A stretch of DNA of 64,000 bases from Lophium mytilinum (GCA_010093605.1 MU004200.1:434001-498000), one strand, 5' to 3'. Counted from the first letter of the stretch, positions 44,186 to 60,800 are shown. Numbers and translations are program-made. The notes: generated by a model from the letters alone, not told the origin.

Positions 44186-45545
44186 TCATACCATATTTCT
44201 TGTCGCAATCCGCGGCATCTCAAATGCTTTCCCGCCTCCATTCTCTAGTATATTCTCCGTGCTCTCCGTATCACTACTCGCCGCCCTCGGCATCCTACCG
44301 CCTCCACTCTTCACCCCCGGCGTCATCGGAAATCTCCCCGATGCGCTCACACTCGCACCGCCCTTCCCCTCCGTTCCTTTTCCTCTCCTTCCTCCCCCAG
44401 CACTGCTACTCCCGCCCTCCGAGCCCCCATTCTCATTTGACCGTATATACCCCTGCCTCCGACTGCTATTACTACTACTCCGCCGCTGCCGTTCCGACCG
44501 TGAGCAATAACACAGCAGCGGCTTCAAGGGGGCAGCGAGCAGCAGATTATCGCGACCTGGATCTCGACCACGAACCATATGCCCCTGGGACGGCGTCGAA
44601 GGAGGGGTCCTTCCTGGTCGTGAAGACGTCGATGGATTGAAGGCGAATCATGCCCGCAACGCAGCTGAAAGCGCCCATGCTGAAGATGAGGACGAGACCG
44701 GCTTTTTCGCGCTTAGGGCGGTGGACGTAGAGGAGGGTGCGGCTGGGGAGGATGGTGATCTATATGTCGGTGGCTATGTTGAAGCTGGCGGTTACTGGAT
44801 AGGGCCCAGTTAGGAAGGGGACGGGAGATGGATGGGAGACGGACGAGAGAGGGAGGAGAAACGAATGGAAAAGCTTGAAAGACATACTGTAGAAGAAGAT
44901 GGTGCGGTTTATGCAGGTCCCTTTGACTTGGCCGGTGATGTCCCAGGCTTTGCGAATGGGCTGGCATTGGGCGAGGACGATAATGATGCACATAATAGTG
45001 TAGGTTGTCAAGAAGTAGATTATCCACAGGCAGGCTCTGCGCAAGAACTGATGTGTGGCTTGTGGGTTCCATCAGACATATTCTTGCAGAGAAGGCGCAA
45101 AAGCTTACTAAACCGCAGATAGAGAAATAGAATCGAGAGTTTCCCCATGAATACAGTAACGTAGTAGGTAACCTCAATGGCCAGAGTGTCCTTGAGAATA
45201 GCAATCATGTCGGCTGGTTCAAGGGAGATAGACACTTTGCCCATGCCGTGCTTCCGGGCTATTATGGTTTCCACGAGAAGTCCTATACTGCCTATCCAAG
45301 CTACGGCCATGATCCAATCATCTATGCCGACATTGCAGACGATGATTTGGCGAGAGATCATTCGCGCGATTAGTATCATGGCTGTGATATATTAGTCAAA
45401 AGTCCATGCAATGCCTATGGGCTTCAATCGTTCAAGGGAAGCTGAATGCAGAAACCTAGTGCTCACAGCCCAATATAGTCATAACCACCGGTATAACCAG
45501 AAGCTCTACCCGCGTATGAGCAACCTCCGACTGATGATGCCCCAT
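44186..45545 (-). CDS. PTH11-like (fungal rhodopsin-domain) integral membrane protein without CFEM
   Basis: Motifs GIDDWIM, HGMG, KLSILFLYLR, QCQPIRKAWD, FNIATDI and IFSMGAFSCVAGMIRL, with a Ser/Gly-rich C-terminal tail. Several introns. Confidence 0.88.
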
Positions 45546-48500
45546 CTTTTCGTCAAGGCTTCACCAGAATCCCCAGATCCAAACTATCGGAATATCCAAC
45601 ACACGTGGAGCCTCCAGCACGAGTGAGAAAAGGACCGAGGACGAAATAATAACGATCCCCCGGAAAGCGCCCAGCAGCGCTTGCTTCCTTAAAAAGAAAC
45701 TCCACGAGCCATAACGCCCAAGATGCACCACTTCAAGAGAGTAATTGAATTCGCCCGGTGTCTCGGATCGAGAACTATAGGGTGTGCTACTGTATTATCA
45801 TCAATCTGTTAACGCTCCGAACCCTGAACGCTGAGCGGACCATATAGCCGTTGTGGCGGCTGTCCCCGCGTGGAGGATGATAGACTGGGGGATGGTCCGA
45901 TCCGAACCATTCGCGGTGGTGCTGTTCGATTGCTTCCCAGACTGACTTGCTTCAGATCGAGTCAGGCACGGACGATGGCCTGGAATGGCCATGTGGCGAC
46001 GAGCTCTAGCGAATGCAGCCCTAGGCTTCGATCTGGGGTACCGCGTCGCTGGGATGCCCTGGCGATCAAGTTAGATTATTCTCATGCTTGTAGGGACCGG
46101 TATTGCACCGTTGTAGAGACAGGCTTTACAGCGCGAGGAGGCTTTCGCGGTTCCTTGTGAGCATCTGTGGAACATTCCATTGCATGTACGACATGTTACG
46201 GGTTCCGAAAGGGTAGAAGTGCTGCCGTCTCTGGTGCTGCAAGGTATCGATCAAGCGATGTGCCGTTTACTACAAATGAATAATCTAGACGGCTCGTTAA
46301 AGTTGAATAGTACAACGCGATAGCTATCCATACACCACTAAGCCATAAGTATGGGCACCCCTTGCACCCGCTTGGTGTACACCGATAAGCCTTTGAAACT
46401 TTTGATCGGACGCGAAGGCCAAGGTAGTGGAGATTGGGCTACCTTTTGACCATGCTATCGCCTGCTGCCTAAAGCACTCTTTACAGTGGTATCCATCGAG
46501 CAAGAATAGAGCCGGAACAGTGAGACATCCACGTGCTCAAACTCATGCCCTGGCAATGTAGTACACAGACGCACCACAGCAAGAATTGATGCGCAGGCTG
46601 TTCAACATCAGGCTTTGGAGCCGATCCTCCAATTCTATTCCCGGCATGGTATGAGCGCATACAGTGATAACAGAGCCAAACTAGAGAACCCTAGGTCATC
46701 AGTTGTGGTTTGAACAACGAACCGTAATCAGTGTAATAACGCGGTAGTATGACGTTTCAGAGATTTCGCCGCGTTTTCCTGTGTCCATGCTATCTTGAGT
46801 CTTGAACTAACGAAATGGTTTTCAAAAATGAGAAAAGCTTTCTAGCTACATGACTGCAAATAAATGACGTAAACAGTGCTGAAACGGAACCGATGTGGCT
46901 ACCTACTTCACTATTTGGGTGATGTACTACCTATTGAAGGGAAATGAGAACGCCATTGCACAGATTAAGCGAACAAAGCTCACCGACCTACTCACACCAA
47001 GCGCTACTGAGTATCTCTGACTAGAGACTGTCTTTTTCCGTGAAATACATCAACATCCAGCGCGAACGACGCTTGATGTGCGCCCAGAGACTTTCGTCTC
47101 AGTGTCGATTAAGAATTCACCCCGTCTTGGACCGCCACACATATCCGTCCCATCAGATACCAGACAGACAAACAAACCTCACACTTGGACCTCTCATCTG
47201 TTGAAAATCGGGTGGTTGGGCTCAGCGCTAGCCCGCCCCCCCTTATTAGCCCCCTCCCCGCCTTCTCCCTTTGCTCATACATACAGCCTACGTACATCGT
47301 ACAATACAACAATTAATGCATTCATTCAAGCTTCCTCTTCTCTATCTCAACATCGTCACCGAGTCGGTTTCTCTTTTACCGCTCATTGAACCACACTAGA
47401 GTCTTTTGAAATTGCGAGGAGTAGCTAATCGGTACCTTTGGGGGCTGTAATCTACATGGTTGACCGTGCTTGCCTTTTTTCGATAGTACGTTATGGAGCC
47501 GTTCCTACTGGGGATGAAATCCAGAGCTGGGTTGAATACGTTATCAGAGGGTAAATTTGCACAAATGGAACAAAGGCTGTGACGTCCTTCAGATCACCTG
47601 AAATATGCGTGAAGTTTCCATGTAAGAGATGACATGGCTTCGTCAGGCGACGTGCCAAGACAGTTTTGATGCCTATCTGTGCAGATTGTCAGGTGATACA
47701 AGGCACAAAATCGGGATGTTGAATGCGTCTAGTTGTGCACGCAAGTACCACGTGAATACGTGCCTCTAAGTCTGGTACGCTAAAGCTAAGTTTCGCGCTT
47801 AATTGAACCTCACACCGCCAGGAAGCTGGTACTTTTCGGACATCCCTCTTTTCGAAGCGGAATAAGCATGCTTAGAATATTTTGACGGCTAAGAGGCTGC
47901 TCTCCGATATCGGCAAGCACTCGAGATAGCGCCCGCAGCTAGTATGGGCCGGGCCGCAAGTGACCCTTCAAGTCTCAACTTAATCCGGACGAGCTATCAG
48001 GCTGACCACGCTGCCACAGGAGAAGCAGTTGTAGCATCTAGCAGACACATAAATCGGTTCGGGCCTATATTCTATAGCGCCTCGATGCTTAAGGTTAGGG
48101 AGATCCAGCTGGCGCATTGAGGGTCAGCCTTCTCATTTGTCCAATTATAGGATCCCTACGCCCCGCCAGCACACGCACCGCCGCGTTGTTGCCTGAATGC
48201 CTGAATGCATGAATGCCCAAGAAGTTCACGTTTTCAATCCTCCAACGATGCGTGATGTGTGGTATGGAGTAAATTGCAGCAGATCGGACATCATTAGTGG
48301 TTGCTGTGTATGGTCAACAAAACTTTAGGCCCGCGGAATCCATGGGTGGAGTGTGAACAAAGGGTGCCGAAGAGTTTTGGCGGGGCGTAAAGTTGGGGCG
48401 GACGAGCGAATGCCCTGGTCCTTTTCTAACTCACAGGTGGATGCGGCTGCTGACAAGTACGTAGATTCAATGACGTCGGGCCACCTTTTGGCCAACATCG

Positions 48501-50141
48501 ACTGGAAACAACCCCTGCTACCGCCCTCGAGGGCGCCGCCCCCCTGTTTGATGCTAGAACACGTCCACCGTGCTGCCAGCAACTCTCCTTCCTGCCAATC
48601 ATAAGAACAAGCTTAGATCGCAATGGGCCAGCTGACGTTCAGGAATCCGGGTTCACTCAGCACAACACCTGGCGCACGCCCCTTGCTACCAATCGCAGGC
48701 CTCCGAGCGCGTCGCAAACGATTCTCTCCCAATGCTTTAATCGCCGTAGCTCAGTGTCTCATTGCCTTTAGAGCTATCTGGAATAGTACGTATTAAAGAT
48801 ATCAGATCTTGGCGACGCGTTTGTCAAGAACTTGGCCATTTGCATGTCGTGTAGACACGGAATGCGCCCTCAGAACATTGCCTGGAAAGTGTTGCTGAAG
48901 CATGGCGACAGCTGGCGCATCTACGACCTAAGTTTTGATCAAATCAGAGATTCGAGCAGGCCATGAAGTATGTTCCCCGACGCTCGCCGCTGGATCCTCC
49001 AATCAAATAAGTAGATAGCTTGTCACCACCAATCGCCACGCCGGTGAATCGTTTCTACGTTTCCCCGCCCTCAGTCTCTGCGTGCACCTTTCTTCTCTAG
49101 CCGGCATCGAGCACCTTTCCGCGGTGCACACCACACCAAGCCATCCCTCTCGTCCTCTATCCTCTACGGGATATTTCTTTCCAGCTTCATTTGGAGAGTG
49201 GTGCACTAAGCTGTCACTGCTGTGCCGAACTGTGGTGCTGCACCACTCACCACTCACCACACATGTGGCCGACGTCTGCTCCTCTCTTTCTGCCCACCAC
49301 TGTCTCGACCTCCGCCTTCTAGCAAACGGTCACTCCATCACCCTGCTAGGCTTGGGCGAGGTTTCCCTGAGTGACCTTCATCGTCGAGGTATCTTCATCA
49401 TCCATCTTTCCCCACCGCCTTGCAAGCCTTCTCCACCGCCTTCACATCAACCTCGTGAGCTGATCAATCCTGTGCGATTCTTCAGATCTTGCTCATTCTT
49501 TTTAGAACAGACTCGACGTTGCAAGACACCTAAATCAACCTCACCAGTTACCACCGATCCTCTACTGGACCCACTGCTGCTGCGTGTTCCGTTGCTTCTC
49601 CGCTATTCCCTCCACCTCCACCTCGATCTTGTGGCAGGCTGTAGTCTCTTTGAAGGGCTCCGTGCTCTCTCTTGGGTTATTTGGGTCGTATGAAGCTGCA
49701 TTTGCGACGCCTTCATGTGGTCTTGACTTCAAAATCCGCCCCGCGAGCCCGCTAGTCTTGACGGCGTCTGTGCGACCGCAGCCTATACCCATACCTTTGT
49801 ACCCCTGCCGATACTCCGCATAAATTGGTGTCGAATAGGGCTATAGCTAGAATACCTGATGGGACGGGTGTGCTTTCTCCAGCATTACTCCCGAATCGTC
49901 GCTCTGAGGGCGGCCGATACCATCTAGAAAGCGTAGTACCAGCGACGTTACACTAGATCACATTGAACGTACGCGCGCCTACCTCGCTCTCGCATCCATT
50001 TTCTACCCTAGCTACCACACTACAGTATTCATACCGTTAAGGTTCTGACTAAGTCAGACTTCGAACGTCCCTACCGTAAGCTTGAAATCGCTGGGTACGG
50101 CCGCCCTCCCCTCTTGGTCAGTGCACGATTCTTCCCCAAAG

Positions 50142-51436
50142 ATGTGGACCGACAGGTTACTTGCCTCTTTGGGACATGGTCGCTCCACCACGGCCACACC
50201 AAACGCTGCACCATGTTCGGAAAGCTTGCGCAACACTCCTATACAGCCGCAGATTAGTACTAATCTCGATGCGGAGGCTATGGAAGCAAACGATGATGTT
50301 CTGGATTTTGGTAAGCTGCTGGTCCCGCATATTTCGAAGCATTACGTCAGCCATGATATTTACGAGAAAGTAGATAACTCACTTGCCGAAGACTTTTCCT
50401 CGGAAGCCCCGAAAACCGATGAAATCCAGATCACAAATGCAAGGGCTGAGACGATAGCCGATTCACCCCGCCAGAACCGTACACACCGAGCTGATCTGGA
50501 TGCGGGTCCGGACTCCAACCCTGCCAACTGTGCCGTGCCAATAGAAGGTGGTACAAAACATCGAAAGCGCCGCGTTGTTCTGAAGTTTGCTTTCCTCCAT
50601 CGCACGTACAGAAAGATTGTCGATCGTGCGAAGCGGAAACTGTCTTCGTCAAAGGCACAGCCGGATGTAAGATCACCATTCCAAAATTTCCCCTCGCGTG
50701 AAGCTTATTTGAGGTGGCTGGTAGCGATTCATCGAGGACTTCTCTCGCACGATTGAAGTATGTTTTCGCGTGAACGATATAGATACCATCTTCGCTGGAC
50801 GAGCGCTGTTCGATTCGGGAAGCCCATACAACTTCATCTCGCCAGCATTTGCGCAGCTATATGGCCTCAGCTTCGATTCTGAGGGCGCAATGGATACGCT
50901 TCGACTTCCTGGGAATAATGTGTTCCGGTCTGTCGCAGAGCTGAAAGGACGCTGGGCCGTCAAAGATAAGCATGTGGCAGATCGCAAGCTATACTTCGAC
51001 AATAAGTTTATGCCCACGACGTTCTATGTATCAGAAGCGGATGGAGAGCCTTTCGATGTGGTCATTGGATCAGAAACAATCCTTGCCGAGGATCTGATGG
51101 GGTTCAAGCACAGATCTGGTTTTGCGGGCTTCGGACGACGGAGACGGCCAGCCTTCGTAGACGGTAAGCTTAAGCTACAGGGCCGGCTTGATGTATGCTG
51201 ACACTGAATAGAGTCCAATATCGGAGCCGCTACGGCGAGGCAACGAGAGAATATGGCTAATAATTCTGCCGATAAAGAAGCTCATGAGGCCGCCTTAGCC
51301 GAAAGAAGACGGCAGATGGTTTGTGACGTACTGTCTCATCTGGCAATACAAGACTAATATGTATTAGGAAGAAGCAGCGGCGGCGGCACAGCGCACGAGA
51401 TCCCAGGCTTCTGCTGAAGCAGAGCGTCGTAACTAG
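50142..51436 (+). CDS. Stand-alone retropepsin-like aspartic protease with disordered N-terminus and C-terminal coiled coil (~379 aa)
   Basis: GRALFDSGSPYNFISPAFA (catalytic D at 50812) and FYV...PFDVVIGSETI (retropepsin D-x-x-I/L-G motif). Frame-preserving introns at 50667-50724, 51164-51211 and 51319-51367. The first intron has a weak branch site and the start codon is uncertain. Confidence 0.75.
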
Positions 51437-52323
51437 AAGCGTTTGACTTCTAACAGGCTGTATGACGATACTAGGTTCGTGAATATGCGTCTCATGTGTC
51501 GCCATTGACAACACCCATCATATATTACTATGATTGTTCGCGGATAGACAGCATCTTCCACTAAATGGGCTTCGAATACGATGACCTAGTGTTCTTTACG
51601 GGATTTTTGACTAAGATCATCAGGTCGCCACACTGTGGTCTGGATTTTTATGGCGCAGGAGGAAACTTTGCAATCCGGCTTCTCATGCATGCAGTGGAGT
51701 GTACGGCTCCCAAAATGTTGGTTCTGTGTATGTCTTCCCGGGACAGCGACTTCCTTTCTGCAGAACGCAGCGTTCTTATACCACACAGGTCGTGTTATAG
51801 CAAATCTGATTTTTTTCACCCCTCGGACATATAGACATGCTCCCAACGACTGTACTTGAGAAATAAGGAATTAATAATCGGGTTTTGATGTGATGACGTT
51901 TTCTTTGACATGAATAGTAATTGGCTTATCACTGACATCGTTTTTTCAACACCTCTTTTTGCGATTACAGCTAGAGTATGGGACCGAACGTGATTGAGAC
52001 CGCAGCAATATGACTTTATATCCTCTCTTTCTTCATCACATGGTAATCTACGACACGTTTAGTGAGTAAGTGTACACTTCGACGATGCCTGATTGACTAT
52101 CGCAGAATCTTATCTCCATTCCTAGTGTACTGAATTCTTTTAACATGTAACAAGAGACGGGCCATAGACTGCATGTAGCATTTAGTGAAACGTTCGCACG
52201 ACAGCGGAAAAATGAAGGAATCCGTGAAGCAAGGATGATAGATTAAGTAGTATAGCGAGTCGACTGAATGGTTTACGGTTCGAGTACCGCACAGAATGAG
52301 GTTCCGACCTTCCTCCGACACAT

Positions 52324-53368
52324 TCAAAAAGCCGCGCTGTTATGAGACACGCTATTACTGGAGCCAACAAAGACCACCATGACAGCGGAGAATCTGAGAA
52401 ACGTTAGCAACCTGACGAAATGGGCTTGGCGCAGAGTCATACGCGGCAGTGGCAGTAAACACCTCCGAACGTGTCGCCGTGGTAAAGACGGAGAGGGAGC
52501 AGGAGATGATAAGACAAAAGGCGGCTATTATGGCCAGTCTTGCTTTCATGGCCTGGACGTAGTAGAGAACCGCGATAGATGCGACAGGTAGCAAAGATGC
52601 AACCAGGGTAGCAATGCAGTAAGTGATCCGAAACACAGTACTGTCCTTGTACCCAACCACCCCAAGAACTCTCGATGGCTTCTTGAAACGTGCCAATCCG
52701 CAACGAAACAGCCACATAGTCACCTTTTTGGTCAAAAAATTTGAGAACCAATCTTCCTTGTGTCGAGGTCGAAGAGCTACTAGATCAGGGGAGTGTGACT
52801 TTCGGTCCGCGATTGAACCCCAAGTACATGCATCGTCTCCTATCAGGTTCAGCGGACCCATTTCATCCGTTGCAAGGTAGTGCTGGATGTCATTCAAGTC
52901 CCATTTGCTTGGTTCCGGCATGCTATGAATCAATGATTGTTGAATTACGGCATCGTCTACAATGGAGTCAATATCACCGGCATTATCGCTCCAAAAAGCA
53001 AAAAACTCACTATACTGCTTGAGCTTCAAGCTGATCTCTCGAACAAGGCTCAATTGTTCTGATGCATCATTGTTACCAAGCTGGTCAGACTGAGAGAGCC
53101 AAAACCAGTCGAGTGCGTATCGTGACTTGCTATAATCCTTGTTATCCTCCGATTCGACTTTTCGAAGCTTTTTCTCCAGCCAAACAAGCTCAGCCTGAAG
53201 GTATAGTAGATTTTGAGCGTTCAAGGCACTAAATCGGCGAAATATAGCAATCTCTGGAAGCAAACCCATTTGGCCAGCAAGCTTGGGGTAGCCGGGTAAA
53301 AGTTCAGCAAGTGGAATAAAAGAAGAAGGGGCCGCCATAGTAAACGGGAGTAACAGTGGTGGGATCAT
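52324..53368 (-). CDS. DUF6594-type fungal membrane protein
   Basis: N-terminal GYPKLA...IFRRFSALNAQNLLYLQAEL..LEKKL, central DLVAL, and C-terminal hydrophobic helices ending RSEVFTATAAFSAVMVVFVGS. Introns at 52957-53010 and 52394-52442. Start at 53368 or 53338. Confidence 0.82.
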
Positions 53369-54122
53369 GGCACGGCGACTCCAAGTTTAAGAAGGAAACA
53401 TGTGTAGTCAGGCTGTGCAAAGAGGCTCTACCGGGCGTATATAGATGGCATCCTCGCAAGGCTCTGAAGGTATGCAGCTCCCTGGCACATTGACGGGCTC
53501 TCTAGATGCATGAACCAATTGCCCTTGAGAAATGTATATTCTTGATACTCATCAAATTCGATGCGGCTATTTTCACGTGGAAACCTGTAGGTCACGTGCT
53601 GGTATACCCTTTTGGGGATGGACAAAGTGTTCTTTGTCAGAAATTACAGCGTCTTTGCAGGAGAGACTAGAATGTGGCGGTTGTATAAATGCAAAATGCC
53701 CCTGGAACCCTCTACCTCCTCTACGAGCAACGCTGTCACGTGTCAGGCTACACGTTGGCGGTGGTAATCCAGGCGGGTCAGGGTGGCTGCAGGTGGTGAT
53801 CACGCCGAAGGACTGAAAGCTGCCTGCCAGCCGCTCTTACGACTGAATGGGACGGAGGAGGGTAGGTCATTGGAGGAAGTTGGCCTCCATACCTGCAGCC
53901 AAGAAGATCAAGAAAGTCTGCAGTATGCCCCGTGGAGCGGTTGGGCCAATTGCAGCAAGAGGCCATCACATCGCAGAATGTCTGCCTGACGCACCAAGGC
54001 TGGCCAGCAGCGCTGCCTGATGTCCACGGAGGTTGGCCATGCAGGACTTGTGCAGGTGGCTTTCTAGGAAATACGGGACTGGAGCTCCATTGGATCGAGG
54101 TCCTTGATCCAAAGCTGTCTTT

Positions 54123-54212
54123 TTCAAGGATCAAAAGCCATTCCAACGATAACCACGAGAAGCGCCTAGGGTAGTTCAAGGATCAAAAGCCATTCCAACG
54201 ATAACCACGAGA
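54123..54212 (+). repeat. 38-bp perfect direct repeat (period 52)
   Basis: TTCAAGGATCAAAAGCCATTCCAACGATAACCACGAGA at 54123-54160 and 54175-54212. Confidence 0.95.
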
Positions 54213-55759
54213 TGCGTCCAGAGGCTGTACGAAGTAACCACTAGTCACGATCTTGCGGGCAATTTCAGCCTTCAACAATGAACGGCCACCCAGGCTCCTT
54301 ACAGCTAAGTGTAGTGGAGACTTCTCACCGGATAGCACATTTTAAAGCTACTCTACGAGCTGCGCAGTGCCGCAAATTACTGTTGCATCTAACATAGTTG
54401 CCGCAGGGAAGATACCTTTGTATGCTTGCGCGCTGACAAGCTGGTATCAGTCACAACATGCCCTCAAGTGGTATGAGCCGTATGAAAACCAAGCTCGCTC
54501 CGGATCATCCAGGGCGTTATGCTTGACTTTGGGGCGGACTTGTCAAGTCCAAGACGGCCTCCTTTTCGCCGTTCAGTTGCTAGTGGCCATCGAGTCGAGC
54601 GACCCCATGAACTGTGGGCAGTGAGCCTGCTTCTCATCCAGTATACCAGGGGATCCACGCAGGCCATTCCGGTGTTGGCCAGGGCGCTAAAGGTGGGAAA
54701 GTGGGCGAGGTGCGACGTGTCTCGCGTGAAGCAACCTGGCACCCTGGCAGATCCCAAAAAGAAAGAAAACTGCATGCTAGCCTTGGTAAGCCGTGCTCTG
54801 CGGGGAGTGATCCTAACAGACGGATACCGCAGCCGTTTGTGCACCCTAAACATGGGCAAGTGCCCTTTTTCTGCCAGACGCCACTGACAGGGGGAAGCTT
54901 ACATGATCGTGGCGAATGCATAAGATTTTATGAATATTACCGTCCGAAACTGCAGATCGAGGTCATCGAAAGCGGTGACAGGGGCTTTGTGCCAATTGCA
55001 GGTGGGGAGCCACCAGATGGTCCGTGACAGCACGTACGGTATTGTATCGGAGGCTATCTAACCTCTAGATCCGTGCTGCACGTACGGTCTTAATACAGCA
55101 AGGGAGTGACAGATTGGCATACCGACGACTCCTCTGAGCCTAGGTTCTGCGCTTGCACCCAACCCTTGTATGCGGTGCGGTATCCGTCTAACACGTCCTC
55201 ACGCCCTCACAATGATCCCGTATTATTGGATGGCGTCAAAGCCACCCGGCAATACTAGCTCGGATCTGCTGGTCAACCGTCTGAAAAGCGGGATGAAGGA
55301 GACGGTCGGGCCCGCTGCAGGAAGACTTGGCAAGGAAGGCGAACATACGCCCAATTCAGGCGACGACTTGACGAGGCCTGGATGGCTGGTCCCTGTTGGC
55401 TGGATAATCGGAGAGGGCGTTTTCTGCACAGCGGCGCAGGCCTCTCAGTGCTGGGTTGCCTACTGAACGCCCGATTCAGGCGATGACTGGGACCGGTGTC
55501 TGTGATTCTGTGATGATTGGATTCTCTGAAATCGTAACGTTTTCGACAACGTATTACTGGAGGTAGTGTCCGCTGCTTGTGACTATGACGGCTGCTGCCA
55601 CGAGTCGGTTCGAGGTACCCATGCTTCAAGGTCTCCTGGCTTCTCGGCAGTCTTCTACTCCGCTTGGAATTGCGCACTCCGCACTTCTGCACTCACCCGT
55701 CCCCAAGCCTTAAAGATACTATTGTCCTTCCCGTAGCTCGTCCTGTGAAGAGCCGAAGC

Positions 55760-56234
55760 ATGACACTATGTCTGAGCGTCCCACTGCCGAAGGTTCCATG
55801 GAGATTCAAAGTGAGTAGTCCCCTGCGTTCTCGTGCGTCCTGCTACCGACTTCAACAAGCCTGACTCTTCACAGCGGAAACGTACCGCAACACCAACGAC
55901 GACGGTCGAGATCCTTGCCGAACGAAACAAATCAAAATACGAATGGCACATCGCTCGCATGTCCTATAACTCCGCGACTAACGCCAACTTCATCGCCCCG
56001 AGACTCCTCAGAGAAGTCCTTCATATAACCATACACCCTTTCGATAAGGAGTCCAGCATGGGACACTACAATGAAGAAGGCATTGAAATTCAGGGATACG
56101 TCGATCTGATCTGGTGTTTCCGGACCTCACGCAAGGTCTTTGAGCCCACACGGTTCTTCGTGACAGCTGTATATAACCCGCCTTTTGATTTAGTGCTGGG
56201 ACAAAGGGATTGCAAAAGGGCTGGGATCCCGTGA
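55760..56234 (+). CDS. Small retropepsin-like protein with degenerate catalytic motif (putative pseudoprotease, ~136 aa)
   Basis: Exon 1 MTLCLSVPLPKVPWRFK, then a phase-0 intron at 55811-55874 (GTGAGT...CTGAC...CAG). Exon 2 has ARMSYNSATNANFIAPRLL and FFVTAVYNPPFDLVLGQRDC, which align to the motifs of the 50142 protein. Confidence 0.68.
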
Positions 56235-56978
56235 GACGTCCTTTGCAGTGGTTTGGCATTTTGAATTTCGGAGTTTCGGCATGACTCAAAGGCTCAAGTC
56301 TACCACCTAGTCAGAGAATCGGCGGTTCCCTTCTAACGACGCTTACGAAATTCTCATCCAATTCTGGTATACTAAGTTGTCAAAGAGAAATGTTCCTAGA
56401 CATAAATGAGTTGAAAGACTCTCTTAACGAGACAACACGAGTGCAGCAGATTTGTGGCATGAACTCACTGAAACCTCCCGTATCCTGCAGTTGTTCGTTT
56501 CGCACATGAAGTTATGTGCCGTTGATGAGATTCTGCAGTCAAACGCTTGGGTTCGCTGATAGCATCCAAATGTTCATACGGGCAGAGAAATGATACCCCC
56601 GCAAGCAAGAACGCCACCAATATATTCTCTCCGCATTTGGGATGCCCCGCAGAGAGCCGCAAAGCAGGAAGCTAAACGGCATTCGGTCCCCGCCAGGGCA
56701 TCTGAGCAGAATTCGTGGGACACTTTCAAACGGCCCATCCATGCAGCAACATCAATAGTAACCTCACCACAGCAGAATTTAAACATGTTGCGAGTTGCTG
56801 AGTGAGCTTGAATGCCATTTTTCTTTAAATTAACTAGCCCTTAGCAAAGGAATCAAACGTTATCCACTAGCCTCATTGCACCGATACCGTCTCCTTCGAG
56901 TTGTTTCAAGGAGGTCAGTTATTCCCATCGCGTGCTGGATCGAGGGTCTACGAGGAAGCTGCCTTCTTCATCAATACA

Positions 56979-57474
56979 TCAGTCAACCATGTCCAAAAGC
57001 TCTCTCCATAGCGAGAGTAGCCTCTTCCACTTAAGATGCCGCAAATTTTTCAAAACCGACGTCTTATGCTCCGCCAATGATGACCGCACGGCCAGTTTTT
57101 CATTATCGAGACAATTCTCCGAAGCTTGTTTGGCAGATGGTGAGTTGATGTGGGAGAGAGGTGGCATTCGTTGTTGGTTCGGATTGTCGAGATCGATAGC
57201 GTTGAGTCGAACGGTTGGCACCATCGCTTCGTCTTTGGCAATCCATATCTGAATTGGCGTCAAAGTACTAAACCATCCAATAATCCAGGAGAGATCTAAA
57301 TTACTCGAAGCCCAAGGCTCTCTACCAGCAGTGCCATCATATTCACGATCCAAGCTGACGCCGGTGTAATGCCACGCACACAACGTCTCACCACACCTCA
57401 ACCCTAGTTCAAACGCACTCAATTAAGCTATGCCAGTCCCGCTCCATTATATACGTGTCTTGGCTGGAGCCCAT
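56979..57474 (-). pseudogene. Possible decayed class I SAM-dependent methyltransferase remnant
   Basis: DTYIMERDWHS..L, IQIWI...PTVRLNAIDLD and VLKNLRHLK loosely resemble motifs of small fungal methyltransferases, but the glycine-rich SAM motif is missing. Possible intron at 57355-57418. Confidence 0.25.
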
Positions 57475-57886
57475 TTCCAATGCTCGCGTTCCAACATATA
57501 CATTAGCTGTATTGCCATCTCCAATAGCCACGTTTCCAATCCAACCGCATTCGGAAACCCCTCGATCCTCTATGGGGACCCAGCCCCCCTCATCTGCCTC
57601 CAGAGGGCCATGCTGAGAATCTATATACAGTAGCAACCAAGCCAAAATGCGCTGCGCAAGAACGTATCTTTGCGCCGCGACCAACTCCTTCAAACGCCGA
57701 TGCAAAAACTAAACCGAAGCTATTAGATTAAAAGGGGTCCCAAGCTGCTGGTGTTCTGCCAGAGCTTGGGCGAAGAAAAGAAATGACGTGCCGCAACGTA
57801 GATACTTGCGGCGTGGGATGCTAGGTGCGTGAGAAGTGGATATCGCGGAATAGAGAATGGAAACCTCTAGCGGAACACAATACCCG

Positions 57887-60800
57887 TTATGGCCGTTTCT
57901 TCACGTGGCCGTCGGGCCCCACACCTTCCAGCATTACGTTCAACCTCGACAAGGAGAAAGATGAGTTCGAGAGATGCAAAACAACGAGCCAGGCACAGAG
58001 AATGTTGGCGATGTGGTGAAGGAGGTAGGCGTACGTCACACCGTACACTGCTGCGTAGACAGCAAGGGCGAAAAGAAGGACGTTGGTGAGGTATCGAATC
58101 CGCGCGGTTACTCTGGGAACCATCCTGCCGGTGCTGAGCGTCTCGACAAGGAGGATGAATGGCATGATGGAGAGTATATTGTGGTGGGAGGAGAATGGTG
58201 TCAACCAGTGGACTGCAAGATTCCGAATCCAGACCACAAGAACGGGGAGGTTGATTGGTAAAATCCAAAGCATGAGTACCAAGATTGAGTGTGTGTAGTT
58301 GTAGAAGTTGTAGTTAGTATCAGATAGCTGCAGATCAGATCAGTTTGAGTATGATTCCAAGTGTTGTGGAATGCATACCGTTTCTCTTACGAGTTTGTAG
58401 GCTCTCGTGCAAGTTGCGATTTGAACAATACAGAGCACCATGTAGGCAAAATGGTACGGGATGAAGGTCGAAACGAGTAAGAGAAGTACGCTTGTGGTAA
58501 TGACTCTTTGTTTTGTCGATGTTACGGCGAATGCCGTCGGCGTGCGTCTAAAATCATGTTAGTACAAAGCTTGGAGTCGGAGGTGAATTACTTGCCGACC
58601 ATCATCACCGCGAAGTGATGCAGAGTGGAAAAGTGAATAGACAACCGCAAACGCGTGTGTTACTCCAATGGCCACGTAGTTCACGGCGACGCAGATTCCA
58701 ACACACATTAAACCGAACAATGGTACGAGGAACCAGAAAAACGTATCTTGAGATCCAAGAAGTAGGTCATTCTTGGTGTAATCTACTGCGCTCGCGGACG
58801 CGTTCGTCCAACTGCCGGAAAGCCAACTATTGGTGTTTCTAGCGGGGTCCTGGCTCGATTTTGACAGTGACATCGCAAAGAATGTCAGAGCTATGAAAGA
58901 GACTGGCAGCGACGATCTCAAGCATAGATTGAGGCTTTCAGAGAAGCTCATGAAAATGGCTATCGCCAGTCAGCTTGCTTCAGGTAAAAGGGGGTAGTTA
59001 CTTACCAGTCTCGTCGTACACCTTAAATTGCTTGCGTAGAACGAGTGCCACCACGAGCAAGGGAAACGCAGCGAAGACTATACGGTACCGCATCCAAAGC
59101 TTTCCCATACTTCCAATAACGTCGATCCTGAGCGAGACGGTCATAGCGCTGTCGCACGTAGGATCTGACCAAATCTGCAGCCCGAGTCCATTCGACGAGT
59201 GTTTTGCTAAGAAAGGTGGTGGCATATACGGTGCTACGCCATGCAGGTTGATGTTGACCTCCTTCACATTGACGAAAAACTTCGACTCGTAGACTTCGGA
59301 AATGTACTGTCGTAGAAGCGGAGTGAATAGTTCAATGCTGTCGCAGGATTGCTTGCCAATTTTGAGGGTGTATGCCAACAAACTGGAGCCCAACGCTGGT
59401 ATCTTGATATCCATTACCATCGGACGTTGCGCAGGTAATTTTAGATCGAGTCCGGTGGCGAGGAGGCGTCGCAGACCGGTATTGACTCGTATGACAGACT
59501 CTGAACTTGCACTGAATTCGGCAAAGACCCAGCCAGGAATGTGCTCTCCGACTTTGTCGACCACTGCTACGAATTGGTGCTCTGCGAGATCTTCGAGGTC
59601 GTATTGTAGGTAAGTAAAGGGATGTGCGCTTTTGAATGGTTGGGTGGACTCTCGTGTGGACTCGGGAAGCGTTATGGCATCGGAAGCTGCGTTTTTGCAT
59701 GCTAGACGCGTAGACCCAGTACTATCACCAGAAAGGTCCATGTTCATTGAGAATAGAGTGGCTGATTGTCCGGCCTGAAGTGGGAATACGCTGCAGAAGA
59801 GAACTTCCAGTTTTCCGTTTTCTCCCGGAGCATCCAGCTGCTGATTTGTAAGAAGAGTAAACTTCCTCCCTTCTGGAGCGCCTTGGGGAGGAATCGGCAA
59901 TAGGTGGGCTTTTGGCTTCCTTGCTTGGCCAAGATTCCGCAAAACTAGTCGCTCCCCTTGCGAGCTGATGGCGTTTGAGTTATCTTCAAGCGTTAGGAGG
60001 GTTTTGGGTTCTACAGCTTGATTAGCGTTCCACGTGCGACTTTGTTAAACAGTGATACGTTACCTTTGTGTGGTAGCGTTTTTTCTGCAACGTCCTCTAA
60101 ACCAGTCAAGAACCATTTTTTGAAGCCACGCATGCGTTCCGCACGGGGAAGCGTTTGAGTTGGCCTCGAAACATCGATTACGTCGTATATTGATCGGACC
60201 ACACTCTTTCTAAACTGATCGCACCACGTAATAGCCAAGTGATCCATTCCTGTCCAAACGTTTGGGATTGACGCTGTGAAGACTGTGAAGCCGTGCGTAT
60301 CAGGAACGAGCGAGGCGATGCTTGCATAATCCGAAGGTACTATGGTATCCAGCCCTCCACCAGCTATGGAGATCAGCGTCACATGCCAGAGCGGATTGTC
60401 GATTGCCCATGTCTGCGAATATGCGTGTCTCCAATAATCGTTCACCCGCTTGTATGTCTTGACGATATCCCCGTCAAAGGATACTGGCGGCCTCGCATGC
60501 GGTGCGGACAAGGTGACAATGGTGTTAATCGAGTTCGACTGATAATTCGGCATGGTGAGCATTGTTCGTGCTACAATCCCGCCCATGGAATGTCCAATGA
60601 TGATGACCGAGCTCGGGTCTGGCAGGTCCGAGTCGCGCAACGACTTGGAGGGGCTGTGGTAAAGGGAGAGTATGAAGGAGATGGCGTCATTCAGGTATTC
60701 GGCCTGGTCAACCAGCGTCTGCCCATGGAAAGCTGTTATATCCTCATTGAAGTCCACGGAGAAGAAATCGAGGGCCCGTTTTCCGGCTCGCGAAGCGCCT

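Follow-up and report, generated by a model that had tools for sequence, protein, structure and literature searches.

Two retropepsin-like genes, one with Asn at the catalytic position, flank a DUF6594 gene in Lophium mytilinum

The window analysed here is a 64,000-nucleotide stretch of an ascomycete chromosome from Lophium mytilinum (GCA_010093605.1 MU004200.1:434001-498000), which carries ordinary housekeeping genes (Raptor, a kelch protein, Rsm22, a family-2 peroxidase and PGAP1/Bst1). Positions 50142 to 56234 of the window hold three genes: gene 1, on the plus strand, which encodes a retropepsin-like protein; a gene of the DUF6594 membrane-protein family on the minus strand; and gene 3, on the plus strand, which encodes a second, smaller retropepsin-like protein. 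On balance, we think it probable that genes 1 and 3 are a pair that arose by local duplication within an undescribed retropepsin-like family, that the gene 3 product is non-catalytic, and that the DUF6594 gene between them is an unrelated bystander. What is new is best classed as a fungal family of retropepsin-like proteins, stand-alone and so far undescribed, that includes a pseudoenzyme paralog; the fold itself is known. The observations comprise the fold and motifs of the two proteins, their paralogy, the Asn replacement in gene 3, and transcription and splicing.

The retropepsin-like domain of gene 1 (P0003, 146 residues) is encoded by one exon at 50725-51163 on the plus strand and was assigned by AlphaFold2, Foldseek, VIA-align and a hidden Markov model (HMM) of the family. 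The plus-strand open reading frame (ORF) containing this exon, 50725-51201, encodes the segments ALFDSGSPYNFISPAF and FYVSEADGEPFDVVIG, and the plus-strand ORF 55815-56234 of gene 3 encodes MSYNSATNANFIAPRL and FFVTAVYNPPFDLVLG. These are the signature segments quoted in the preliminary description of this DNA, and all were present where it had placed them; the ATG at 50142 and the stop codon at 56232-56234 likewise coincide with the limits it gave. The AlphaFold2 model of the gene 1 domain had a mean predicted local distance difference test (pLDDT) score of 87.9. The top Foldseek match of this model was the RVP domain of Ddi1 (E=2.6e-5, probability 1.00), with retroviral proteases next. By VIA-align, the domain superimposed on the Ddi1 RVP domain with Z=11.0 and a root mean square deviation of 3.1 Å over 103 residues, and on retroviral proteases with Z=8.4-10.3. 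The gene 3 model had a mean pLDDT of 88.4, and its top Foldseek match was also the Ddi1 RVP domain (E=3.1e-4), followed by retroviral proteases. Hence the earlier reading of both outer genes as retropepsin-like was confirmed by a retropepsin fold for each model. When the family profile was searched against PDB sequences at E<=10, the five matches were all Ddi1 RVP domains (5/5, best 0.018), and in the profile alignment the D-T-G of the family fell on the D-T-G of yeast Ddi1, with the I-G motifs likewise in register. A language-model look-up gave named matches that were all retropepsin-like clusters.

A search of 1.84 billion proteins with P0003 returned 50 cluster representatives at E<=1e-3, of which 18 were at E<=1e-10 and the best was 45% identical. 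About 46 of the 50 were judged genuine. The remaining four, P0031, P0046, P0049 and P0053, are long proteins matched over several short stretches and were rejected as spurious, three having bacterial Ig-domain/cell-wall hydrolase families, one a myosin SH3, and none a protease family. The family alignment (A1) contained 43 sequences, namely 40 representatives, gene 1, gene 3 and P0055, the gene 3 ortholog described below; besides the four spurious proteins, two long forms (P0007 and P0028) and four short or partial sequences (P0021, P0032, P0040 and P0041) were left out. The family motifs are A-x-F-D-T-G-x-P-x-N-L-I-S, G-R-W, F-D-P-K-F and F-D-V-I-I-G, together with GFR, and the layout is constant across the approximately 46 family clusters. 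The catalytic column of the alignment is Asp in 41 of 43 sequences and Asn in two, gene 3 and P0055. The D-[TS]-G motif is present in 34/43; gene 1 has D-S-G, encoded at 50812-50820 on the plus strand, with the putative catalytic Asp at 50812-50814. The Gly of the hydrophobic-hydrophobic-Gly motif after the flap is invariant (43/43), in the form V-I-G in gene 1 and V-L-G in gene 3.

Pfam matches among the 43 aligned sequences were to Asp_protease_2 (18/43), gag-asp_proteas (7/43) and RVP_2 (1/43), the best member reaching E=2.7e-7. Judged by these searches, the gene 1 family is small, fast-evolving and sparse, and has no Pfam model of its own. A literature search on fungal retropepsin-like and domesticated retroviral-like aspartic proteases yielded no paper on the family, and PMC13414439, in the part of it that was available, covers pepsin-type enzymes only. 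In the two long forms, P0007 (874 residues) and P0028 (425 residues), the retropepsin-like domain is followed by an unrelated Cys/His-rich C-terminal region with no Pfam match, which by eye only has a C2H2-type zinc-finger look. These two are either real fusions or merged neighbouring genes.

Although the RVP domains of Ddi1/DDI2 (PDB 4z2z, 2i1a, 5yq8, 3s8i and 4rgh), a cellular non-viral retropepsin, were the best structural match of both models, the comparison of sequences and layout indicates that the gene 1 family is not Ddi1. The gene 1 domain is only 15-21% identical to these RVP domains. Ddi1/DDI2 proteins have UBL and helical (HDD) domains ahead of the RVP domain and often a UBA domain behind it, whereas the N-terminal ORF of gene 1 has no Pfam family and the layout is a different one. 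Ddi1 is, as far as is known, a universal eukaryotic single-copy gene, unlike the sparse and fast-evolving gene 1 family.

The fold and both signature motifs are also common to the gene 1 family and the retroelement and retroviral proteases, including those of Rous sarcoma virus (RSV), feline immunodeficiency virus (FIV), human immunodeficiency virus (HIV) and Mason-Pfizer monkey virus (M-PMV). Both outer genes might be protease remnants of long terminal repeat (LTR) retrotransposons and not host genes, an explanation to which we give hardly any weight. The Pfam families matched do include retroelement proteases (Asp_protease_2, gag-asp_proteas and RVP_2), Ty3/gypsy proteases have a similar motif around the Asp, and the spacer before gene 3 contains repeat DNA. 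On the other hand, gene 1 is not in a polyprotein, and Pfam scans of 6, 34 and 73 window ORFs revealed no gag, reverse transcriptase, RNase H or integrase, hence no retroelement genes nearby. Spliceosomal introns are removed from both genes, and the family has motifs of its own (GRW, FDPKF and GFR) in a constant layout over about 46 clusters. The residue after D-T-G is usually Ala in retroelement and retroviral proteases, whereas N-P or C-P follows D-T-G in the gene 1 family.

Transcription was checked by comparing contigs of sequencing run X3 with those of DNA run X1; the stretch is represented in three runs from two studies. Run X3 was taken as RNA (derived from complementary DNA) because its contigs carry canonical spliced joints that are not skipped in X1, and none of the listed X3 splice joints was found in the DNA run. 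The pieces of X3 contigs listed match the window without any differing letter. The three genes are on three separate X3 RNA contigs, and spliced contigs cover each gene. Both outer genes had been described as intron-containing, and the X3 contigs splice both; one gene 1 intron (50311-50373, in frame) had been missed.

The coding region of gene 1 (50142-51436, plus strand) was modelled from the X3 joints and the sequence with exons at 50142-50310, 50374-50666, 50725-51163 and 51212-51318. The introns between them, 50311-50373, 50667-50724 and 51164-51211, are all GT..AG and are skipped in the X3 contig. There are two options for the end of the gene: read-through to a stop near 51357, giving 348 residues, or a putative 49-nucleotide intron at 51319-51367, read from sequence alone, with a stop at 51434-51436, giving about 358 residues. 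The product consists of an N-terminal part of 154 residues with a basic stretch, followed by the retropepsin-like domain and a charged tail. Pfam at E<=1 assigned no family to the N-terminal ORF (50049-50756), and by eye the N-terminus showed neither a signal-peptide-like start nor a hydrophobic stretch. Among proteins of 257-2000 residues, a word-based search for the gene 1 domain returned no match, not even the window's own gene 1 product; the public record may lack an annotation of gene 1 or contain a shorter model of it, whereas the gene 3 and DUF6594 products are stored.

The gene 1 product would be a non-secreted, stand-alone retropepsin-like aspartic protease that acts inside the cell. 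Retropepsins are homodimers in which each subunit provides one Asp and whose dimer sheet includes the C-terminal strand. By analogy, the gene 1 protease would be an active homodimer, with the Asp of D-S-G given by each subunit. The 154 N-terminal residues and the charged tail at the C-terminus may serve in targeting or be subject to self-processing, and the protease may process itself or a few substrates.

The coding region of gene 3 (55760-56234, plus strand) comprises two exons, 55760-55810 and 55875-56234 including the stop codon, and encodes 136 residues. The intron at 55811-55874 is GT..AG and was spliced in the X3 contig. The ATG at 55760 was chosen as the in-frame start, while P0054, the stored annotation, takes a Met further downstream as its start; the residues before the annotated Met align with the first β-hairpin of the family and have block-mean pLDDT values of 88-94.

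Paralogy of the two outer genes, which had been claimed from their common retropepsin signatures, was supported by several comparisons. In BLASTP, the gene 1 and gene 3 products aligned over 100 columns with 26% identity (E=2e-5). The HMM was made from 40 family members, neither window gene being among them; run on 1329 six-frame ORFs of the window, it detected gene 1 at E=1.8e-50 and gene 3 at E=4.1e-6 (22.5 bits), the next best being E=1.4. With phmmer against 51 family proteins, the best match of gene 3 was gene 1 (5.1e-4; next 0.053). In addition, both genes have a phase-0 intron at profile position ~49-50, no more than about one residue apart. Overall, gene 3 has diverged to approximately 18-26% identity. 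Gene 3 aligns to profile positions 56-169 of 236, lacks positions 170-190 and ends about 10 residues past the Gly motif; nine residues around the F-D-P-K-F motif are also absent. It keeps the fold-defining W80 and FDLVLG.

At the column of the catalytic D-T/S-G, the family alignments place N-S-A in gene 3, encoded at 55968-55976 on the plus strand. The preliminary description had spoken of one active and one dead copy, and in terms of motif this held: D-S-G in gene 1 against N-S-A in gene 3. Asn at the catalytic site of a retropepsin abolishes catalysis. The prediction that the gene 3 product is catalytically dead is well founded, because Asn occupies its catalytic column. Among 5.8 billion clusters, the sole ortholog of gene 3 detected was P0055, from a 952-base contig, which is 71% identical, has the same ends and carries N-L-G at the catalytic column where gene 3 has N-S-A.

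Gene 3 would have arisen as a local duplicate at the DNA level and diverged far, losing the catalytic Asp, the nine-residue stretch and the C-terminal segment. It may be a decaying, functionless copy, transcribed only on account of its position in open, transcribed DNA that reaches into the 3' end of the convergent PGAP1/Bst1 gene; this is a possibility to be taken seriously, if not the likelier one. It would fit the three losses, the weak family-profile score of 22.5 bits, the different neighbours of the active-site residue in gene 3 and P0055, and an RNA contig that gene 3 has in common with the convergent Bst1 transcript. Against decay, the frame is open and the ends are identical in the 71% identical ortholog, the assembled RNA lacks the intron, and the N-terminal hairpin before the annotated Met aligns with the family at the high pLDDT values given above. 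Transcription and splicing of gene 3, and the open frame in one related organism, make a non-catalytic paralog the most likely reading, ahead of a dead relic.

The RNA contig in question (55358-60000) carries the plus-strand intron of gene 3 as well as minus-strand introns of PGAP1/Bst1, and over 56.2-57.9 kb the 3' ends of the two convergent transcripts seem to overlap.

A non-catalytic paralog could still act through gene 1. In a protease-pseudoprotease partnership with DUF6594 as a bystander, the gene 3 product would bind a gene 1 subunit or its substrates and damp the activity, and a heterodimer with one Asp would be inactive. Mixed retroviral protease dimers that carry an Asp-to-Asn subunit are inactive, and gene 3 resembles such poisoning subunits in having Asn in the same fold. 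It keeps W80 and FDLVLG, is transcribed and spliced, has the neighbouring gene 1 as its closest relative among the 51 family proteins, and its ortholog P0055 keeps the Asn and the ends at 71% identity. Unlike the poisoning subunits, however, gene 3 is without the C-terminal segment expected to take part in the dimer sheet, and with profile positions 170-190 absent the canonical dimer pairing may be lost. The residues beside the Asn differ (S-A in gene 3, L-G in P0055), which fits relaxed constraint, and only a single ortholog was found among the 5.8 billion clusters. A complex prediction for the gene 1 domain and gene 3 scored 0.00, a value obtained without control runs that is evidence neither way. 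We consider a partnership of protease and pseudoprotease alone unlikely, and yet more likely than any arrangement that involves all three genes.

The middle gene lies at 52324-53368 on the minus strand, as established by Pfam (PF20237), tblastn of the annotated protein P0056 on the window and X3 contigs. P0056 (303 residues), recorded publicly as a hypothetical protein of Lophium mytilinum, starts at 53338, and another in-frame ATG is at 53368. The introns are 52957-53010 and 52393-52442 on the minus strand; X3 pieces stop at 52956, resume at 53011 and end at 52443, which fits P0056, and the GT..AG ends of 52957-53010 were read from the sequence on the minus strand. The Pfam match had E=3e-52 for the raw ORF and 6.9e-60 for the annotated protein. 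With 203.4 bits (cut-off 30) over profile positions 1-238/238, P0056 is a full-length, ordinary member of PF20237, in agreement with the earlier identification as a DUF6594 membrane protein. Three hydrophobic C-terminal helices were seen by eye.

At E<=1e-10, the search with the DUF6594 protein gave 124 homologs. Those with names represent more than 30 genera at 44-57% identity and further genera at 30-40%; most of the closer genera belong to the Dothideomycetes, and those at greater distance to the Leotiomycetes and Sordariomycetes. When 20 homologs were aligned, the mean column identity was 61% and many columns were invariant. Pfam at E<=10 gave no family for the protein other than PF20237, and in a structure search of the Atlas only DUF6594 clusters scored above a template modelling (TM) score of 0.32, the strongest at 0.73. 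Neither search showed a pore-forming, gasdermin-like or cell-death likeness. DUF6594 and PF20237 were not mentioned in the literature searched. Most likely, the DUF6594 gene, one of a fungal group of membrane-protein genes with broad conservation, is a bystander, and the trio would have arisen from local duplication in a gene-poor stretch and not be a functional module.

The DUF6594 gene is convergent with gene 1 and divergent from gene 3, as first described. From this layout the preliminary description had proposed a proteolysis-controlled defence or allorecognition module, in which the gene 1 protease would cleave the DUF6594 protein, itself the effector or substrate, while the dead paralog would serve as inhibitor or decoy. 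Apart from the physical layout and orientation, and the transcription of all three genes, which would suit it, the data had nothing to offer for such a module, and we consider it very unlikely. No fused forms were found: 0/120 listed DUF6594 homologs carry another Pfam family and 0/43 retropepsin-like sequences carry DUF6594, and the extensions after the retropepsin-like domain in P0007 and P0028 do not lead into DUF6594. By Pfam (E<=10) and the Atlas model, DUF6594 resembles only DUF6594. Allorecognition genes are typically fast-evolving and polymorphic, unlike a DUF6594 protein conserved at 44-57%. The genes are separate transcription units, and the gap before gene 3 is 2.4 kb long and bears repeats. 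In four related metagenome contigs (alignment A2), which at 1166-1534 bases are too short to reveal neighbours, our reading of six-frame ORFs of at least 50 residues gave no recognisable adjoining gene. The prokaryote genome collection contained no relatives of either family, and the viral collection none of DUF6594. Because fusions are absent, DUF6594 is broadly conserved while the protease family is sparse and fast-evolving, the transcription units are separate and the spacer is repeat-bearing, the indirect evidence leans against an obligate link between DUF6594 and the retropepsin-like family.

The closest precedent for such a module is the clustering of fungal proteases with a membrane-acting death effector, which favours it in so far as most fungal gasdermin genes adjoin protease genes (PMC8851545). 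The likeness to het-Q1/het-Q2 and the gasdermin-protease clusters (PMC8851545) consists in a protease gene beside a membrane-protein gene in a filamentous ascomycete. There, however, the partner is a gasdermin homolog and the clustered proteases are subtilisin-like or caspase-like (caspase-related), not retropepsins, whereas here they are DUF6594 and a retropepsin-like protein. Moreover, the gasdermin-protease clustering was shown across genomes (PMC8851545), while the trio described here comes from one window. The het-Q analogy thus fails on both defining parts examined, the effector type and the protease type. A proteolysis-gated membrane module that is a retropepsin-based counterpart of gasdermin-protease pairs, with the pseudoprotease restraining the protease, would be a long shot; the three-gene module is unsupported, neither shown nor refuted.

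Several points weigh against the reading that we prefer, a duplicate pair with one non-catalytic member around a bystander. Two paralogs flank one gene in a 12-kb stretch that has no other recognisable gene, a suggestive layout, and transcripts of all three genes occur in a single RNA data set. Gene 3 is retained in the ortholog P0055, which is 71% identical and agrees with it in the Asn and in both ends; this suggests that gene 3 has some role, possibly together with gene 1. The structural model of gene 3 was built on an alignment consisting mostly of the active family. As to the family itself, gene 1 scored 19.9 bits against Asp_protease_2, under the gathering score of 24.3, and gene 3 had no match. 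The identities for the gene 1 family, including the best value of 45%, are to representatives of 50% clusters, and closer relatives may be hidden. In addition, 7/43 sequences keep the Asp with D-P-H, D-P-N, D-T-A, D-T-Q or D-S-Q in place of D-T/S-G. Since these seven are without the T or the G, proteolysis may not be the common function of the family, and from the alignment non-catalytic members may be common, or loss of catalysis recurrent.

If the family is as it looks, filamentous ascomycetes carry a stand-alone cellular retropepsin distinct from Ddi1, with its own motifs and layout, and the fungal case joins a short list of host-owned retroviral-type proteases. It would also have at least one natural Asp-to-Asn offshoot, and would provide a simple system for pseudoprotease evolution. 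A new cell-death or defence module would matter far more if true, and would give the first functional lead for DUF6594; it is so far without support. RNA-checked gene models were obtained for all three genes.

The surroundings of the trio agree with the earlier term gene-poor island. About 12 kb separate a Fung_rhodopsin-domain gene (44763-45391, minus strand; found by Pfam, at least two exons), which marks the edge of the gene-poor stretch, from PGAP1/Bst1 (from 57887, minus strand), and the recognisable genes inside are three. A Pfam scan of 73 other ORFs of at least 60 residues between 44.7 and 57.9 kb, with the three genes excluded, gave two matches, both of them pieces of Fung_rhodopsin.

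Upstream of gene 1, a spliced transcribed region extends over 47764-50141 on the plus strand, its start at 47764 being computed from the extent of the X3 contig. It contains introns at 47956-48019 (GC..AG), ~48092-48150, 49455-49505 and 49969-50025, and one X3 contig of 3611 nucleotides joins these introns with those of gene 1. The joined leader exons have no ATG-started ORF of more than 64 residues. This transcript is either the leader of the gene 1 mRNA, which would then be very long and contain upstream ORFs, or a non-coding RNA from further upstream that the assembly joined to that mRNA. At 46770-47678 there is a separate, unspliced X3 RNA contig of 909 nucleotides, with no Pfam match in its ORFs.

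The spacer at 53931-55350, to which no strand was assigned, is dispersed-repeat DNA with no recognisable ORF and no Pfam match. At 54080-55190, the source DNA run has additional contigs that differ from the window in many letters, and its assembly of the spacer is fragmented into pieces of 181-697 nucleotides. A repeat search over 45-58 kb found one repeat only, a 47-nucleotide tandem pair at 54123-54169 and 54175-54221. One contig of the DNA run connects 53931 to 54675 on opposite strands.

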